A stretch of DNA of 63,325 nucleotides, filler included, from Reticulomyxa filosa (lineage: Eukaryota; Protista; Foraminifera), in NCBI GenBank assembly GCA_000512085.1. It is 24 parts of 24 records of this genome, joined end to end, with 100 filler letters (N's around TTAATTAATTAA, not from the genome) between each part and the next. Parts side by side here need not be neighbours in the genome. Positions count along the whole stretch, not along the records: positions 55,986 to 57,215 come from ASPP01003574.1; 23 more parts are not named here. One strand, 5' to 3'. The position numbers and the translations under genes are program-made. Position 1 is the stretch's first letter. Each line of letters begins with the position of its first letter. Under the pieces are notes generated by a model, which was not told where the DNA came from, did no database searches, and saw nothing but the letters and a program-made list of their open reading frames with translations. Below are positions 27,528 through 61,713 of the stretch, piece by piece.

Positions 27528-27988
27528 AGGCGGGTCCGATGGTGAAACAGCTGCGTAAACTGGGCATCAAGGCCGCGTTCATGGGCGCCGATGGCGTCAA
27601 TACGCCGGAGTTTGCCAAACTGGGTGGCAAAGATGCTGAAGGCGCGTACGCATCCAGCGCTGGTGCCCCCAAAGAAGCGATGCCGGGTTTTGCCAGCTTC
27701 AACGATAAATTCAAGGCCCGCTTCAAGACTGACATCCAGGCCTACGCACCGTACACCTACGATGCAGCACGGGTGCTGATCGACGCCATGAAGCGTGCGG
27801 ATTCGGCCGATCCGAAGAAATTCCTGCAGGAAATCGGCAAAACCCAGTTGCAAGGTGTGACCGGCGCTATCGCTTTTGAACCGAACGGCGACATCAAGAA
27901 CGGTGCTGTCAGCTTGTACCAGCTGCAGGCTGGTGCCTGGAAGGGCCTGACCGCGGCTGCACCGGCGCAAGCCTCTGCCGCCCAGTAA
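27528..27988 (+). CDS. Bacterial branched-chain amino acid ABC transporter substrate-binding protein (LivJ/LivK/BraC family), 3' part
   Basis: FMGADGV, YAPYTYDAARVLIDAMKRADS, GVTGAIAFEPNGDIKNG; GC-rich and intronless. Confidence 0.92.
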
Positions 27989-28008
27989 GCCAAACTGAAC
28001 CAGCCATC

Positions 28009-28034
28009 AAAAGCGCCTTTCGGGGCGCTTTTTT
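28009..28034 (+). terminator. Rho-independent terminator
   Basis: AAAAGCGCCT-TTCG-GGGCGCTTTTTT hairpin with a T tail, 20 bp after the stop codon. Confidence 0.9.
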
Positions 28035-28070
28035 CATGCACAGGATTGACTGCCTGCTGATGGGCCGGCC

Positions 28071-28099
28071 TTGTCGCCAGTAGGCAAGTTGCGTAGAAT
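28071..28099 (+). promoter_or_regulatory. Putative sigma70 promoter of the BMP gene
   Basis: TTGTCG-N17-TAGAAT; GGAG ribosome-binding site at 28158-28161 before the ATG at 28167. Confidence 0.6.
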
Positions 28100-28166
28100 G
28101 CCGGCGATTTATCTTCTATGGAAGTAACATCCAAGGAAGCAACATTAAGTTTTTTTCGGAGCCCGT

Positions 28167-29133
28167 ATGATGCCACGCCAACTGACCGCCCTCGCCTTCA
28201 CCCTGACACTCGCCACGACGGCACACGCTTTTACCCCTGCGGTCATTTCCGGCTCGTCCGGCAAATTCGACAAAAGCTTCAATGAGGCGGCCTTTCAGGG
28301 TGCCGAGCGTTTCAAGAAAGCTACCGGTATCAGTTACCGCGAAGGTCAGGTCAATAACGACGCCCAGCGCGAGCAAGTGCTGCGTAATCTGGCACGCCGC
28401 AATGTCGATCTGGTGGTGGCTGTAGGCTTTGCCTTTACCCAGCCGGTACAAGCCGTGGCGCCGGAATTTCCCAAGGTCAAGTTCGTGATCGTCGATGACG
28501 TCGCCAAGGGTGGCAACATTCAGTCCATCGCCTTCCGCGAGCACGAAGGTGCCTACCTGGGCGGGATGGCTGCAGCCCTGGCATCCAAGACTGGCAAGGT
28601 TGGCTTTATCGGCGGCATGGATGCGCCGCTAATCCGCAACTTTGGTTGCGGCTTTGCCAGGGGCCAAAGCCGCCAAAGCGGCTACCGTGGTATACAGCAA
28701 TATGACCGGCACCACCTCCGCCGCCTTCAACGACCCGGCACGCGGCGGCGAGTTGGCACTTAGCCAGTTTGATCGTGGCGCAGACGTGATTTTCCATGCG
28801 GCAGCAGGCACAGGCTTGGGCGTGCTGCAGGCTGCAAAAGATCGCAACAAACTTGCCATCGGGGTCGATAGCAACCAGAACCACCTGTTCCCGGGCCGGG
28901 TACTGACCTCGGTGGTGAAGCGTGTCGACAATGTGGTGTATCAGGTAATGATGGATGCCAAGCAAGGCAAATGGCAGCCTGGCGTGGTGTCGATGGGGCT
29001 GAAGGAAGGCGGCATGGACTGGACGCTGGACCAGCACAATCGCGCACTGATTACGCCCGCCATGGAAAAGCAGATCAACCAGGCAAGCAGGCCATCATTG
29101 CAGGCAAGGTCAAGGTCTCTGACTACCGCGTGG
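28167..29133 (+). CDS. Bacterial BMP-family (nucleoside) ABC transporter substrate-binding protein, 3'-truncated, two apparent frameshifts
   Basis: Signal peptide, GKFDKSFNEAAFQG, FREHEGAYLGG, SKTGKVGFIGG, ADVIFHAAAGTGLGVLQAA, AIGVDSNQN, LTSVVKRVD. The frame changes at short homopolymers near 28660 and 29086. Confidence 0.92.
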
Positions 29134-51011: not shown

Positions 51012-51487
51012 CATGGGATAAAACCATTCGAATATGGGATATTGAAACAACCAAACAATTCAATGAATTCAAAGGACATGCAAATAGTGTGATGAGGGTA
51101 AAATATGGACCAAATGGATTAGTGAATACCATATTATCTGGATCTGCAGATAAAAGTGTTCGTTTATGGGATATTCGATCTGGTAAACAAACTCAAGTGT
51201 TTAATGGGCATACAAGTTGGGTGTATGCTGTTGAATATTCACCACTTGTAATAAAGAATATGATTGGTAATTCAAATGTGATATGCTCTGCATCAACTGA
51301 TGATACAATTCGTTTTTGGGATATTCGATCAAATAAGAATGAATTATATGTGATTGAAGGAGATAATTATGGAATAACTTGTCTTAAATTTATTGCATTG
51401 AAAAAGAAAGAGAATACAAAGAATATTACATATGATTTTAATTTATGTTATGGTTCACGCAATGGTTTCATTCGTGTTTGGGGATAA
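51012..51487 (+). CDS. WD40-repeat protein, 3' part (multicopy host family)
   Basis: WDKTIRIWD, FKGH, SGSADKSVRLWDIRSG, FNGH, DDTIRFWDIRSNKNELY..LCYGS..IRVWG*; intronless. Confidence 0.95.
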
Positions 51488-52401
51488 TTGACTTTATGTC
51501 GAATAAGAAGTACAGTTTTTTTGATCAGCAAATGTACTTTGTATTAAATATAATTATATCAGGGACTGTCAATTGCTCACCAGATCGAACTTGTTGTTTG
51601 TTTAATCATTCTTAAAAATAATGTTTTGTAAATTATTTTTTGATGTAATTTCTTTGTTGTCCTGATTGATATAATGGTTCATTTTTGAAATTTCTTCATT
51701 TTATTTCTTTTCTGATTTCAAACGTTTAATATCATTCTTATAATTACGATAAAACAAAGATTTCTTGTTGAATGTTTTGTTACATTGACTCGAATTCCCC
51801 GATTACCAATAAAAATGTTGTTTTAAGCAAAGAAACAGTGCATTCACATAATCTAAAAACAGGATTTCTGAAAAGAAGTGACAATCAATATACTTTTTGT
51901 TTGTGTTAACAAAGCAATTGATGAAATGTATACAAATTGTAATGATGATAGAATATCATGGATGCTGTTTGTACAATTCTGAAATATTTAAAGTGAATGT
52001 ATCTGACTGCAATCAATTTACAAACAAAATGCTCTATGAAAGAGAAATAGTCAAATATTTTATGTGAATTCGTTATATAGAAAAATTTATGTTTGTCTTA
52101 ATTCATACATAACTCTCAATCAATTTGTGTAGTAAGATGCTTCCAATTCGAGTGATAGCAAATAAGTAAAAATGAATGTACAAGTGTATTATGTGATAAT
52201 TCTCGGTCAGAAAGAAAGAGTGAATTTTAAACCAAAAATCAATTCAAACTCCAATTACAACTTTTGTAGTGACACACACAAAAATTGTCGATAAATGAGT
52301 GTGACACGCATGCAAAACAAAATCATTCGGGCAGCTCAATTTAAAATGATGTGTGCAAAAAGAAAATAAATTATTTAAGACAAAAACAACTCTTTACAAC
52401 A

Positions 52402-53172
52402 TCAAGCAAAGGCAGCATCAATGATTTCCGTTTGTTCTTTTTTATCGACTTGGGGATATCCTGTCGCAGGAGCCGCACCCGATTTTCTGGAAATTAATCG
52501 CTGTTAATGTTTTATTTTTTATTTCATATGTTATTTTATTTTGAATTGTTTTCATTTGTATATTTACAAGTTCGATCGATATCAAACTTGTTGTGATAAA
52601 GTTGAAGTATCGCTTAACTAGAGCTTTCTTGGTGATGCCCTTTGAAGCAGTGTTAAATCGGGGGGCCACGTAACTCCAAGCGCCCATATTTTTAGGTTCC
52701 TCTTGCACCCACGCCAATTCGGCCTAAACATTGTTATTGAAGTTTAAGTCACTTTTTTTTTTAAAAAAAAAAAAAAAGGGGGAAAAAAAAAGAAAAAAAA
52801 AATTCTTTGGTGATGATATAAAAAAACATACATTGGGGTATTTTTTCAATTGTTGTTGGACCAAGTCATAAGGGAATGGAGCAATTTGTTCCAATCGCAC
52901 AAAGACGACATCGTTCAGTTTGGTGGGGTCTTTTGCGGAGATCTTTATGCGGTGGTCCATCAAATGGATCCATATTTTGCCGCTGCAAAACAGCACGCGC
53001 CGGACTTTGTCGTCTTTGGCCAAGCCTTGGGGCAGCCCATGTCCATCATCAGGGATGGCACGTTGGAATTTGCTATTGCCGCAAAACTCACTTAATTTGC
53101 TGGAGGCAATGGGATGGCGAAGGCCAAACTTGGGTGTAAAGACTATCAATGGTTTGCGAAAATCGCGATGTA

Positions 53173-53211
<39 letters not shown>

Positions 53212-54347
53212 GCGCATATATATAACCTTGAATAAAAAGTAAAAAGAAATAAAACTTACCTGTCTTCGCAAGACATGAAAGAAATTGGCAGGCGTGGTGC
53301 AATTGACGATTTGCCAGTTAATGGATTGGAGTTGTTCCAAATAGTTGAGAGAGAGTTCGTCGGCGTCGTCGTTGCAGGACTGAAGGAAGCGCTCCATGCG
53401 TGCGCTGGAGTGTTCGGGACCGCCCGACTCGTAGCCGTGCGGAAGCAGACAGACGAGCCCGGACGAGCGCAGCCACTTAGACTCAGCGCTGGATATGAAT
53501 TGGTCAAACACTACCTGCGCGCCGTTGGCAAAGTCTCCAAACTGTGCTTCCCAAAGTACCAGTGCGTTGGGATGCTCCGTCGAGTATCCGTACTCGAAGC
53601 CCAGCACCGCCAACTCACTCAAGTTACTGTTCGACACATGGAACTCGCCCGTCGCGCCAGGGATGTGACACAGTGGTCGGTACTGCGGTCTTTCCTGTGC
53701 GCTCACATTCTGCTGCTCGTGGATCACCGCATGTCTGTGTGAAAATGTCCCTCTCTCTGTGTCTTGTCCGGACAATCGTACGTGATATCCCTCCAATAGT
53801 AACGAGCCAAATGCTAAGGCTTCACCTGTGCCCCTGGGATGTATTTATATTTTTTCATTATATACATATACATATATGTACACATATGTATGTATATGTA
53901 CAGATTATTTGTACATATATTTATATTTATATATGTATACATATGTATATGTAGATATAATATTACCAGTCAATGCCATCTCCTTCTTCGATGGATTGCT
54001 TCTTTTTTTCCAAGATTTTTTTCAGATTGCGATGGACAGTAAAGCCCTCCGGGAGAGCGGTTAAAGCGATGCCAACTTTTTTGCGGTTTCTTGAGTGATA
54101 GCAGTGCTATGTTCGGTGGCGTCCAAATGGTGGCCCGACATTTTTTGCCAGTTTTGACCCAGCCAATCCGGAACCCCTTCTTTGTAACTTACCGACTTTT
54201 CGTACGCGTCGTTCAGTATGCCGACGATGCGATCTTCCATTCCTTTGATCTCTTCCGTCGTCACAACTTTGTCAGATATTAATTTTTCTTGTATCGTTCC
54301 TTTTTTTTTTTAATATGATATTGTTTTCCACAAAGTATATATACACA

Positions 54348-54378
<31 letters not shown>

Positions 54379-55885
54379 TATATATTTATTTATTTTTTAA
54401 AAAAATGTTACCAGGACAGTGTCGTTGGTTTTGATTTTTTCATCGATGATACGATACATGAATGGCTGCGTGAAGGCGGGCTCGTCTCCTTCGTTGTGAC
54501 CGTACCTTCGGAAGCACAGCATGTCGACGACGGCGTCGGTTTTGAAAGTCTGGCGATAGCGCACGGCCATTTTGGCACAGCGGACGACGGCCTCAGCGTC
54601 GTCGCCGTTGACGTGGAAAATGGGGGAGGCAATGGACCTGGCCACATCCGTGCAATACGGAGAGCTTCTCGCCGCATACGAATCGGTGGTGAAGCCAATC
54701 TGGTTATTTACTATCAAATGGATCACTCCGCCTGTGGAGTAGTCGGGCAGTTCTGTCAAAGCCATTGATTCGTATACACTTCCTTGTCCTGCAAAGGCCG
54801 CATCGCCATGTAATAATATGCTATATATATATATATACATGTATATATGTATATATGTATATAATGTGTGCTTTAAATTAAATTAAAATACAAACAACAA
54901 ACACAATAATCCTTACAAAAATATATCGTATTTACCAACAAGTCTTGGTTCGATCCGAATCTTTTTTGTAAAATTGCTTGGCTCGTGTTTTGCCCATGCA
55001 AATAGGGTTGACTGCTTCGAGATGTGACGGATTGGGGACCAGCGACAAATGCACTTTGATTTCGTCCGGCGTGAAACGGTCGGTGGAGTAACCCAAGTGA
55101 TATTTCACGTCGCCCGAGTCTTCGATTTGATCCCAAGGCAGGGCGAGGCCGCGGAACTCGTACAAAATGCGCTCCAAAGGCTTGCGCATTACCGAGCAAA
55201 GCGTCAGCAGTCGCCCTCGATGAGGCATGCCAATCACAAAGTCTGTTATCCCCAGTCGAGCTCCTTCGTCGATTACCTCTTTCACCAAAGGCACCATCGA
55301 CTCTGCCCCAATCACTCCAAATCGTTTTTGAGCGGGATATTTTATATCTAAGAATTTCTGCATTCAATAACAACAACAACAACAACAACAATGGCAACTC
55401 CAATTTCAATACAACATAAGATTTATTTACAAAAAAAAAAAAAATCAAAAAAAAAAAAAAACCAACTTCAAATTCGGTGGCCCAAATCAATCGATCGAGT
55501 ATTCTGAGTTGTTCTTCCTTTCCAAAGTGACGAGTTCCTCTCTCAATCATTGCCCTCAAATAGTTGTTCTTTTGGCTGTTTGCAATATGCATGTACCTAC
55601 ACAAACACAACCGAATAAGTTTAGGAAACTGTTTACATAAATATATATATATATACATATATATATATTTATGTAAATGTGTTTAAAGCATTGCAAAACT
55701 GATAGCCAACCGTCCCGCAATAGACTTCTTGCAATCGCTTGACAACCTCTCGGATGGTGACCCATCCGTCGGTGTTGCCCATCAAAGACAAGAATTGTGT
55801 GTGTTCCCCAACATAGATCTTGCGATCAATGTCTTTTCAGTAAACCCCCAATACTCGATATCTATTTTTGTTTCGAAAAGATGTT
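52402..55885 (-). CDS. OGDH: 2-oxoglutarate dehydrogenase E1, multi-exon, 5'-partial
   Basis: [113 protein letters not shown]. Confidence 0.98.
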
Positions 55886-56133
55886 NNNNNNNNNNNNNNN
55901 NNNNNNNNNNNNNNNNNNNNNNNNNNNNNTTAATTAATTAANNNNNNNNNNNNNNNNNNNNNNNNNNNNNNNNNNNNNNNNNNNNTCCCTTTCACAGAAC
56001 AATTTTTTAAGATACTTATAGCAAAAAGAGAAAACATTGCCTTAATGCAAATGAAGCCATCAAAATGAAAACACGGAGTGGATTCAATACAAAAACAGAG
56101 TGAACTGTTTTAAAAACAAAAAAAAGGATTGCA

Positions 56134-56520
56134 TCAAATGTTATTATTAACTTCTATAAGATCACCTATTTTAATTTTTTCTCGTATTGTACGATTAACA
56201 ATAATACAACCCTCTGACGCAGTGTGATTTAAAGCCTTATTATCTCCATGGATTCTAAAATTATCTCGTCCATGATTGTCATTCACATTCACTTCAGCCA
56301 ATACAAGAGTCAAAGGGCCCTTACTTGATGTAATGGCTGTAACTTTCCAAGTACCAACAGGAATCGGTCCTTGATTTTTCAAATTCTGCGATTTTTCATT
56401 ATTGTAATTAGTACTATTTCCTGAGTAAGCGTTGTTATCCACGTTCTTGCTGCTCCCGTCCAAACAAAATTTTCCAACTTTCGACTTGTACGAAAATGTG
56501 TGTGTGGTTTGATGTGCCAT
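56134..56520 (-). CDS. Tlde1/DUF2778 domain protein (L,D-transpeptidase-like fold)
   Basis: 128-aa intact ORF with AYSG, N...Q...QGPIPVGTW, GP..L.L, GRDNFRIHGDN and ASEGCII, including the catalytic His and Cys. Confidence 0.88.
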   Translation of the reverse strand: MAHQTTHTFSYKSKVGKFCLDGSSKNVDNNAYSGNSTNYNNEKSQNLKNQGPIPVGTWKVTAITSSKGPLTLVLAEVNVNDNHGRDNFRIHGDNKALNHTASEGCIIVNRTIREKIKIGDLIEVNNNI

Positions 56521-56797
56521 TTCTACGTAGAATGAAGCTCTTTGTAAAAAAACAAAAGTATTGTAATTGAAATGATAGAAGCAAAAAAACTAGAGACAAA
56601 CAGAACTAATTTGAAGATTTAGATTTAGTTTTGCCAGGATCTGTTTTAATGCAAAAAATTGAAATATTTGTTAAAAAGACAGAAAGTCTTTTTTTAAACA
56701 ATTTTCGATAACATATCAAATCTTGTGTACTTGATACATTGGAGTGATTTAATCATAAATAAATTTTAAGAAAAATAAGAAAGATCTGAGAGAAAAG

Positions 56798-57215
56798 ATG
56801 AGCAAAGGATAGGACGAGAAAACTCCAAAAGAGACACACTGGAATGACTACAGTGTCCTTTGAGCACTCATGTTTCGATAAAGACTGGATATTACAGCTG
56901 AGTCAAGCAGAGCAAATTGAACAGTTTATTTGTTAAATTTGCAAGCAAGTTGCCAACAATCTAATTGAAATAGATTGTTCGTAACATAAAGACATGGATA
57001 TATCACCTATTGTCGGTGATAATTTTCTGAAGCAGTTCTTGAATGTCAATCTTAATTCTTGTCCTGTTCAGCCTCATGATGGTCGTATATATGCACAAAC
57101 CAAAATTGCACATCGATATATTGATAATCTGAAAGTGACATGTCCACTACAATTTCAATTGGACTCATCAGATATCTACTCAATAAAAACAACAAATATG
57201 AGACTGTAATTAAAT
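56798..57215 (+). pseudogene. RING/TRAF-type zinc-finger family pseudogene (multicopy host family)
   Basis: SCFDKDWILQL..FIC*ICKQVANNLIEIDCS*HKDMD..IVGDNFLKQFL..NSCPVQPHD..LKVTCPLQFQ, with in-frame stops and a frameshift. Confidence 0.8.
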
Positions 57216-60084: not shown

Positions 60085-61713
60085 GGCAATGATGCCGACC
60101 AGCTTGTCGCCATAGCCCACCAGCATCGCTGTCTTGCCGTTTTGCTCCAGGCTCTGCATGGCGTCATCAGCCACACCGGTGGCGATGCCCTGCTGGGCCA
60201 GTAGCCGCCGGTTGCCCAGCCATACCGGCAAGCCGTTGACCTGCCCGCGAATGCCCAGACCGGCAAGACCGGTGATGGCGCTGGCCTGCGGCAAACTCAG
60301 CTGCCGATGGGCGGCCTCCCGCACGATCGCCTCACCCAACGGATGCTCCGAACCGGATTCCACCGCCGCCGCCAGACTCAATACCTCCAGCTCGGTGTGC
60401 ACGTCAAAGGCACGATGTCGGTTACCGTCGGCTCGCCGCGCGTGAGGGTACCGGTCTTGTCGAAGCCACGCAGCTGAGTTTCTCCGCCCGCTCCAGCACC
60501 TCACCGCCGCGAATAAGCATGCCGCCGTCCGCCCCCTTGCCAACGCCCACCATCAGCGCCGCCGGGGTGGCGATGCCCAGAGCACACGGGCAGGAGATGA
60601 TCAGCACCGCGATGAAGGCCAGCAGCCCTTGCGGGAAATCGCCAGCCAGCCACCAGCCGACAAACGCCAGCACCGCCACGCTGATCACGGCCGGCACAAA
60701 GTAGCGGGTCACCTCGTCCGCCAGACGCTGGATGTGGGCGGTGCTGGTTTTGGGCTTCTTCCACCATGCGGATGATCTGTGCCAGCGCGGTATCCGCCCC
60801 GATACGGGTGGCGCGGAAGCTGAACACACCGGCCCGGTTCAAGGTACCGCCAATCACGGTGCTGCCGGGCTGTTTTTCTACTGGCATGGATTCGCCAGTC
60901 AGCATCGACTCATCCACCGTAGATTGGCCTGAAATGACTTCGCCGTCGGTCGCGATTTTTTCACCGGGCTTCACCACCACGGTTTCCCCAACCATGATGC
61001 TACCGGCCGGAATCTCCACCTCCTGACCATCGCGCCGTACATGGGCGGTGGCGGGTTTGAGGTCAAGCAACCGGCGCACGGCGGCGGAAGATTTCTTCTT
61101 GATGATTTCCTCCATGTAACGCCCCAGCAGTACAAAGGCGATGATCACGGCGGAGACTTCAAAGTACACGTCACGCTCGGCCACTTTGATCGGCAACACG
61201 TCTGGGAAGAACATCACCACCACGCTGTAGAAGTACGCCACTGAGGTACCCAGCGCGATCAGGAAGTCCATGTTGATATTGCGGGTGCGCAGCGCGTTCC
61301 AGGCGCCACGATAAAAGGTCCAGCCGCCAATGAACTGCACCGGGGTCACCAGCAGGAACAGCCACACCCCCCAGGTGAACCATGGCAGATTGGGAATCGG
61401 CGCCCAACTCAGCAGCGTGGCACCAGTCGCCAACCCGAGGAAGGCGGCGGCCCGCAGCACCGCCAGCGCCAGTACCCCGGTCATGGCGATGGTGACGCGG
61501 GTTTCATCGACTTCAGTCGTTTCCGGCGACTCGAAAGTGCGCAGGCAGGTCTCGCTGCAGAAGTAATAGCTGCGTCCGCCACGTTCGCTCTTCAGCGCGG
61601 TAGCCTTGTTGACCAGCATGCCGCAGATCGGGTCTTTGGCCTTTTCCCCAGGTTCGGTCTCCGCGCTTGCGGGGGCATCGTGCTGATGTTGAGGCCCGGG
61701 CGCCGGCGCCGCC
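60085..61713 (-). CDS. copA: Bacterial Cu+/Ag+ P1B-type ATPase with a YHS/TRASH domain, internal fragment, apparent frameshifts
   Basis: [70 protein letters not shown]; GC-rich and intronless. Confidence 0.92.

Follow-up and report, generated by a model that had tools for sequence, protein, structure and literature searches.

Results

A Tlde1-domain gene opposite a broken host-type gene

The window analysed here, a stretch of 63,325 nucleotides (filler included) from the foraminiferan Reticulomyxa filosa, consists of 24 short contigs separated by N spacers. Most of these contigs have a eukaryotic look, with WD40, G-alpha, PH and CRAL-TRIO sequences and a split oxoglutarate dehydrogenase gene. 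One contig of 1,230 bp (55986-57215, GC 0.32) carries an open reading frame (ORF) for a Tlde1-domain protein and is laid out as follows.

55986..56133, no strand: downstream flank to the contig end, 148 bp, with host-like 4-mers
56134..56520, minus strand: Tlde1/DUF2778 gene, stand-alone domain, single exon, 128 aa, without a hydrophobic N-terminus
56206..56268, minus strand: predicted active-site stretch R85-H91-S102-E103-G104-C105, from motif and alignment conservation
56521..56797, no strand: AT-rich spacer between the divergent starts, 277 bp; the host assignment rests on this junction
56798..57209, plus strand: 5′ part of a RING-like/TRAF/WD40-family pseudogene, with one TAG, one frame change and two TAA stops

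The ORF runs from ATG to TAA without an internal stop or a spliceosomal intron, and none of 1000 base-shuffled versions of the contig gave an ATG-initiated frame of at least 128 aa. Its product contains the motifs AYSG (residues 31-34), GPIPVGTW (51-58), GRDNFRIHGD (84-93) and ASEGCII (101-107), has 13 residues separating H91 from C105, and is matched by the Pfam profile PF10908 (Tlde1_dom) with 53.3 bits against a cut-off of 30.1 (E 4.7e-14). The first-pass annotation had described an intact, intronless 128-aa ORF with the DUF2778 motif series and a 13-residue His-Cys gap. All of these were recovered, and the family assignment is borne out by the Pfam score and by the fold match to Tlde1a given below. 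No Shine-Dalgarno word occurs within 25 nt upstream of the ATG, in line with that annotation. A sigma-70 promoter scan stayed at chance level (6 versus 5.5), and blastn of the 1,230-bp contig against plasmids gave no match.

According to the accessible text on Salmonella, the immunity gene there lies upstream of the tlde1 effector gene. No immunity gene was seen upstream of the ORF, where the neighbour is the host pseudogene, and no linked T6SS, Hcp or VgrG gene was found on the contig. The earlier statement that operon neighbours and an immunity gene are lacking therefore stands for the upstream side; because the contig is 1,230 bp long and extends only 148 bp downstream, this absence is judged upstream only.

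By hydropathy alone no signal peptide was seen in the ORF product, the top 9-residue value in its first 45 aa being 0.48. The sequence TACGTAG, which had been put forward as a possible splice acceptor leaving room for an upstream exon, is indeed located 2 nt upstream of the ATG. The exon itself was set aside: the relatives P0001 (RFI_22607 of R. filosa), P0002 and P0026 begin at the same position, also without a hydrophobic N-terminus, so that no upstream exon is needed, though the gene may still have one.

Fold and predicted active site

An AlphaFold2 model of the ORF product, built from a 150-row alignment, reached a pLDDT of 94.4. Upon comparison with 48,161 solved chains by VIA-align, the best match was Tlde1a (7uma; Z 12.8, rmsd 2.2, 112 residues, 20% identity), followed by the L,D-carboxypeptidases Csd6 (Z 11.2) and Pgp2 (Z 11.0) and then by Bd1075. 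The top 20 rows all had the L,D-transpeptidase fold, and row 21 fell to Z 3.4. Foldseek returned matches at E ≥ 2e-3 only, and those listed were likewise of the L,D-transpeptidase fold. A sequence search of the PDB with the ORF product yielded nothing at E ≤ 1, Tlde1a included, and a profile search of the PDB gave chance-level matches only.

H91, S102, G104 and C105 are invariant in all 150 rows of the alignment, and R85 is present in 148. When matched by motif rather than by structural alignment, R85/H91/S102/E103/G104/C105 correspond to R115/H121/S128/H129/G130/C131, the residues named in the accessible parts of published work on Tlde1a. The ORF product is a Tlde1-domain protein with the catalytic His, Ser and Cys kept. 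Structure prediction, one of the checks proposed at first pass, thus returned the L,D-transpeptidase fold with the predicted His-Cys site in place.

His129 of the Tlde1a (S/T)HGC motif is replaced by Glu103. As far as the accessible text on Tlde1a goes, His129 aids carboxypeptidase activity; since the ORF product has Glu at this position, its specificity may differ. Glu is found at position 103 in the ORF product and in 80 of 150 rows and His in only 21, but this share is biased towards the ORF product's own state because the alignment was seeded by it.

Evidence for a location in the host genome

The neighbouring frame starts at 56798, head-to-head with the ORF and 277 bp from its ATG. Codon 5 is a TAG, the frame shifts near 56835, two TAA stops follow, and the contig end cuts the sequence off. 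All nine of its matches are R. filosa proteins with 50-75% identity, mostly of the TRAF/WD40 type; RFI_28149 is 75% identical over 110 aa. Because a Pfam search of the neighbour itself gave nothing over the cut-off, the label 'RING/TRAF' rests on these relatives. A eukaryotic RING/TRAF pseudogene about 280 bp away had been noted before, and the distance, the broken frame and the R. filosa relatives agree with that description.

Contamination is a live concern in this window, since two GC-rich contigs look bacterial: one at 60085-61713 (GC 0.635) with YHS and heavy-metal P-type ATPase genes, and one at 27528-29133 (GC 0.584) with periplasmic binding proteins. Both are probable assembly contamination. 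Codon usage is strongly heterogeneous within the host: at 51012-55885, the gene for 2-oxoglutarate dehydrogenase E1 (exon GC3 ∼0.6) is split by TA-repeat-rich AT stretches that are likely to be introns, and the WD40 fragment adjoining it has a GC3 of 0.18.

Base composition was compared with a 4-mer model, for which 21 contigs of the window served as host training and 10 of 20 fetched regions (GC < 0.42) as bacterial training; the bacterial controls were translocase-bearing Alphaproteobacteria, stand-ins for Rickettsiales-like symbionts and not the real symbiont of R. filosa. Among 134 host windows the ORF ranked at the 43rd percentile, and 2.4% of 170 bacterial windows scored higher. The downstream flank lay at the 73rd percentile of host windows, topped by 0.8% of 280-bp bacterial windows. 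The spacer (56521-56797; GC 0.245, 14 A/T homopolymer runs per kb) was the least clear part: it ranked at the 23rd percentile among the host windows, and 6.7% of bacterial ones scored higher. None of 60 bacterial windows topped the score of the whole contig. The ORF had also been called AT-rich like the host; its GC of 0.354 (GC3 0.29) agrees with this, but host and symbiont cannot be told apart by AT content alone, since R. filosa has a Midichloriaceae symbiont with a GC of 0.375.

A profile search of 31 translocase-bearing small genomes gave no match (0/31; controls 3/3 positive), and neither did order-level searches around G141 (six genomes) and G110 (two genomes). Physical linkage to host DNA consists of one assembled contig shared with the Reticulomyxa-family pseudogene, i.e. 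of assembly and not of reads. The location in the host that the first-pass annotation thought likely is supported by this shared contig and by the host-like 4-mers. We regard it as highly probable that the Tlde1-domain gene resides in the host genome, and an origin from a symbiont or a chimera as improbable.

A second Reticulomyxa protein and a sign of selection

Among 1.84 billion representatives, the best match to the ORF product was the R. filosa protein RFI_22607 (70% identity, E 2e-48), encoded on a separate contig of 4,286 bp and labelled 'Tlde1 domain-containing' automatically in databases. A search for paralogues, as had been suggested, led to a close relative in R. filosa, which is either a paralogue or an orthologue of the ORF. 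The 36 differences between the two proteins fall in 1 of 23 columns conserved at ≥ 90% and in 35 of 98 others (Fisher p 0.0015), a protein-level comparison that reflects the period after the divergence of the copies and not present function. Moreover, 32 of 38 family-conserved columns are kept in the ORF product, with the catalytic residues all intact. The column comparison appears to be a sign of purifying selection on the gene since its split from RFI_22607. Selection had previously been argued from an intact gene beside a decayed one; the claim gains from the column comparison and not from that argument.

A branch with ciliate members and a separate rotifer set

A tree of 87 rows was sampled from a pool of 271 proteins: 47 were selected, the 15 ranking next by score and 25 random ones were added, and the query was included. 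In this unrooted tree of ∼130 columns, in which the bootstrap had not settled and the group was picked after scores were known, the ORF product falls in a 15-row branch with support 98/88. The branch comprises the ORF product, RFI_22607, the Pseudomicrothorax dubius transcripts P0034 and P0176 and 11 others, and includes no named bacterium; ten of the 15 members come without taxon or context, and the Pseudomicrothorax records derive from a transcriptome that may contain prey sequences. The sister row of the branch is P0077, which lies on a viral contig (L019) with FtsK and further phage-like genes. The phylogeny called for at first pass accordingly gives a branch with foraminiferan and ciliate members and a phage sister row. 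In a 43-row LG+G4 tree, two rows of phage type, the phage protein P0077 and P0189, were placed inside the branch without resolution.

A further branch member, P0026, is encoded on a contig (L081) that looks eukaryotic, with a GC of 0.34, long spacers and a coding density of 0.48, the second lowest of 175 loci (for the 144 loci longer than 3 kb, the 5th percentile is 0.81). Visual inspection of positions 1-1800 of this contig showed no obvious alternative-code frame. Its neighbour gene had no Pfam match; by model features only (0.91), and as a lead only, this neighbour is akin to eukaryotic clusters.

Hydrophobic N-termini were seen in 5 of 13 branch members examined, whereas the ORF product, RFI_22607, P0002 and P0026 share the same start and lack one. 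Other members vary in architecture: in P0027 (538 aa), ∼410 residues without a Pfam match precede a Tlde1 domain at the C-terminus that belongs to the protist-like branch, P0036 combines a signal-like start with a Ser/Gln linker, and P0031 has a Cys-rich tail.

A separate, tight set of seven rows (P0178-P0184, 116 aa; support 99/99) is formed by bdelloid rotifers, with Adineta vaga (UJR17040.1, on an 18.1-Mb contig) and Rotaria (CAF2951684.1). All three rotifer copies examined lack a signal peptide, and the set groups weakly with Rhs toxin tips (91/85). The accessible part of an A. vaga RNA-seq table (PMC12220480) lists at least two PF10908 genes with base means of 50 and 17 and the HGT column blank; the same source gives a Dictyostelium purpureum match (XP_003287163.1, E 7e-7) for one of these, the rotifer DUF2778 gene FUN_001672-T1, which makes the Dictyostelium protein a possible amoebozoan family member. 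An AU test of the protist-like and rotifer rows as one clade was not rejected (p 0.141), so that the number of acquisitions is one or more. The one-off acquisition by a protist that was proposed initially does not fit a branch with ciliate members and a rotifer set of its own.

Relatives in phages, Rhs toxins and T6SS clusters

The best full-length identity to the ORF product was 46% in 14 GTDB loci and at most 48% in 80 viral loci. Tblastn searches of plasmids and phages with the ORF product gave matches all below 60%, those listed ranging from 34% to 49%. A near-identical gene in an AT-rich bacterium, which the first-pass annotation had asked about, was seen neither in the 31 genomes nor among the 14 GTDB loci. 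No relative turned up when viral sequences were scanned with the single protein, a branch-specific DNA pattern gave 0 viral matches, and no giant virus or phage carrying a member of the 15-row branch was found among the viral sequences searched.

Of the 80 viral loci, 68 were counted (11 near-duplicates were dropped and one had no called ORF), with only membrane-type neighbours submitted to PHROGs. A holin (12) or spanin (6) adjoins the Tlde1-domain gene in 18 of these 68 phage loci, several of the 18 being close kin. In two loci (L008 and L016), the gene comes after a holin gene, with a head-completion and a tail-completion gene on either side, a position which we take to be the endolysin slot of P2-like phages. 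In L008 (4385-6601), L016, L015, L022 and L001, the Tlde1-domain gene is directly 3′ of the holin gene, and phrog_24118 is listed with 'unknown function'. These lysis-cassette positions suggest that the phage genes represent an under-annotated type of small endolysin of 116-130 aa. In the PhaLP database, PF10908 is entered once.

The Citromicrobium microvirus vB_Cib_ssDNA_P1, whose genome of 4.4 kb has six genes, encodes a homologue with 36% identity (L175, 1328-1738), annotated as hypothetical gpB and a candidate lysis gene. The contigs of P0189-P0191, at ∼4.5 kb, are close in size to this microvirus.

Context was further judged for 33 genome and long metagenome loci, from at most two same-strand neighbours per side: three lie beside a phage lysozyme, four are Rhs tips and one is in a T6SS cluster, where the family gene sits between VipA/VipB and Hcp (L115). 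In the Acidobacteria MAG loci L164, L165 and L170, the Tlde1-domain gene adjoins a phage-type lysozyme gene. The accessible parts of published work give 43-77% of the family as T6SS-linked; unlike this published family, the sub-branch of the ORF is not T6SS-linked. The first-pass annotation had assumed a T6SS-type donor. This view is not supported, since the closest relative outside eukaryotes is encoded by a phage and T6SS core genes adjoin the family gene at 1 of 33 loci; from an unrooted tree, a phage would be the better guess for the donor than a bacterial injection system.

Discussion

Relation to known enzymes

The closest characterized relative is Tlde1 (Tae5-7, DUF2778/PF10908; Salmonella Tlde1a), with which the ORF product shares the Pfam family, the L,D-transpeptidase fold and the R..H..S-x-G-C residues. 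It differs in length (128 versus 172 aa), in having Glu for His129 and a longer His-Cys gap, and in its setting on a eukaryotic contig where no T6SS or immunity gene was seen. According to the accessible text, a capping insert is found in Tlde1a only; the ORF product probably lacks this subdomain, which is presumed missing because the chain is shorter. The phage lysis-cassette genes (phrog_24118; L008, L016 and L015; microvirus gpB) resemble the ORF in size, stand-alone domain and S-E/H-G-C motif at 35-48% identity, but have a holin or spanin beside them, their lytic role being deduced from position. The Rhs C-terminal Tox-LD-peptidase (L161, L148) is the same domain used as a toxin tip, whereas no Rhs shell or immunity gene accompanies the ORF.

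A parallel with the dae genes had been drawn at the outset, and the analogy with domesticated wall enzymes of bacterial origin holds. In the accessible parts of the sources, Dae2 of ticks, NlpC/P60 proteins of Trichomonas and LdcA of aphids are peptidoglycan enzymes of bacterial origin that eukaryotes have retained to act against bacteria or to control symbionts. In these same parts, Dae and NlpC/P60 have a papain-like amidase fold, and Dae2 and several NlpC/P60 copies carry signal peptides, which the ORF product does not. The activities of all three have been assayed, whereas that of the ORF product is predicted. LdcA is a serine peptidase, and none of the three has the fold of the ORF product.

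The L,D-transpeptidase fold is regarded as a bacterial one, associated with wall building, toxins and drug targets. Searches of titles and abstract starts for Tlde1, DUF2778, PF10908 and IPR021225, with few subscription journals covered, found no paper on eukaryotic members, and 12 of the 16 files of the PMC11258130 supplement held no match. Eukaryotic domestication of wall hydrolases is known; an L,D-transpeptidase fold in eukaryotes was not found described in this literature. Background was drawn from accessible parts of 10.1101/2020.02.18.954545, 10.1101/2022.08.05.502956, 10.1101/2020.04.10.036376, 10.1101/320382, PMC3482391, PMC9116674, PMC9144972, PMC8310338, PMC9753089 and PMC10847448.

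A probably captured enzyme that may cut bacterial walls

The gene is intact beside a broken host-type gene and has ciliate and rotifer relatives; therefore, microbe-eaters are likely to have borrowed it. The explanation we favour, with somewhat more confidence than doubt for origin and role taken jointly, is that of a gene in the host nucleus that came by horizontal transfer from the pool of phages and bacteria and that would encode a wall-cutting L,D-peptidase; by analogy, a small Cys-His enzyme of this kind would help the amoeba to digest or control bacteria. By the chemistry of Tlde1a and L,D-transpeptidases, His91 would activate Cys105, which Ser102 would brace. Cys105 would then attack the mDAP3-D-Ala4 bond, releasing the D-Ala side and forming an acyl-enzyme, to be resolved by water or by a D-amino acid, and the bacterial wall would be weakened or trimmed. 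The signal-less copy would encounter walls, whole or in fragments, in the cytoplasm, or via non-classical delivery to food vacuoles, while the signal-bearing ciliate relatives would be sent to a vacuole or to the outside. In a bacteria-eating amoeba, prey wall breakdown would be the simplest role.

By comparison with Tlde1a, Glu103 would disfavour a free D-Ala carboxylate. The short chain, Glu103 and the phage lysis-cassette position led us to the idea that the sub-family may cut the same bond inside cross-links. A broader and distinctly more tentative reading, which we think possible but rather doubtful as a whole, is that small enzymes of the L,D-transpeptidase fold are a widespread but overlooked class of antibacterial lysins among microbe-eating eukaryotes (foraminifera, ciliates, bdelloid rotifers and possibly Dictyostelium) that arose by repeated capture of phage endolysin and Rhs-toxin genes, and that an open cleft with Glu would direct the mDAP-D-Ala cut to cross-links (endopeptidase) and not to free tetrapeptides. 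If true, cross-link cutting would make the phage Tlde1-domain genes a little-recognised endolysin type.

Alternative explanations

The alternative that survives best, though we hold it to be unlikely, is that the host-encoded enzyme targets a resident cytoplasmic bacterium and trims the wall of an endosymbiont rather than that of prey. It would suit a product without a signal peptide and the association of R. filosa with a Midichloriaceae bacterium, and the accessible text on aphids describes LdcA as acting on Buchnera. However, signal-less and signal-bearing forms are mixed in the branch (5/13), and all three rotifer copies are signal-less although no such symbiont has been shown in rotifers.

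Less probable still is an assembly artefact, in which a gene of the symbiont, another bacterium or a phage became attached to host sequence, with the same foreign source for its relative in R. filosa. The tiny contig, the fragmented assembly, the intronless gene and the bacterial contigs in the window are all compatible with it, as are the closeness in GC of symbiont (0.375) and ORF (0.354) and a spacer that is the least host-like part by 4-mers. Yet the ORF and its downstream flank are host-like by the same measure, no Shine-Dalgarno word precedes the ORF, none of the 31 translocase-bearing genomes gave a match, and the closest relatives come from Reticulomyxa (a protein) and a ciliate (transcripts) rather than from bacteria.

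We give an equally small chance to a host gene that no longer acts on peptidoglycan, whether through a new D-amino-acid or peptide substrate or as an unexpressed, recently dead duplicate. Such a loss would accord with the missing signal peptide, with Glu at the position of Tlde1a His129 and with an adjoining pseudogene in a pseudogene-rich genome; it is at odds with the 32 of 38 conserved columns and intact catalytic residues, and Glu is the commonest state at position 103 in bacterial and phage relatives (80 of 150 rows). Capture of a T6SS cargo effector by the protist lineage alone is very improbable: among solved structures the T6SS effector Tlde1a matches best, one family gene sits between VipA/VipB and Hcp, and Rhs-tip forms exist, but there is no sequence match to Tlde1a at E ≤ 1 (20% identity by structure), the His-Cys gap is 13 residues versus nine, the sister row is a phage gene, and both a foraminiferan and a ciliate are represented in the branch.

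Implications

The capture of a wall enzyme by a microbe-eating host, the reading preferred here, is of limited surprise, since eukaryotes borrowing wall enzymes is an established concept. The sub-family of the ORF is likely to be common to several microbe-eating eukaryotes and to stand nearer to the lysis genes of phages than to effectors carried by a T6SS. A selected branch in unrelated bacteria-eating eukaryotes would add an enzyme class to the domesticated wall hydrolases, and would give a testable candidate for the breakdown of prey peptidoglycan by protists and rotifers.
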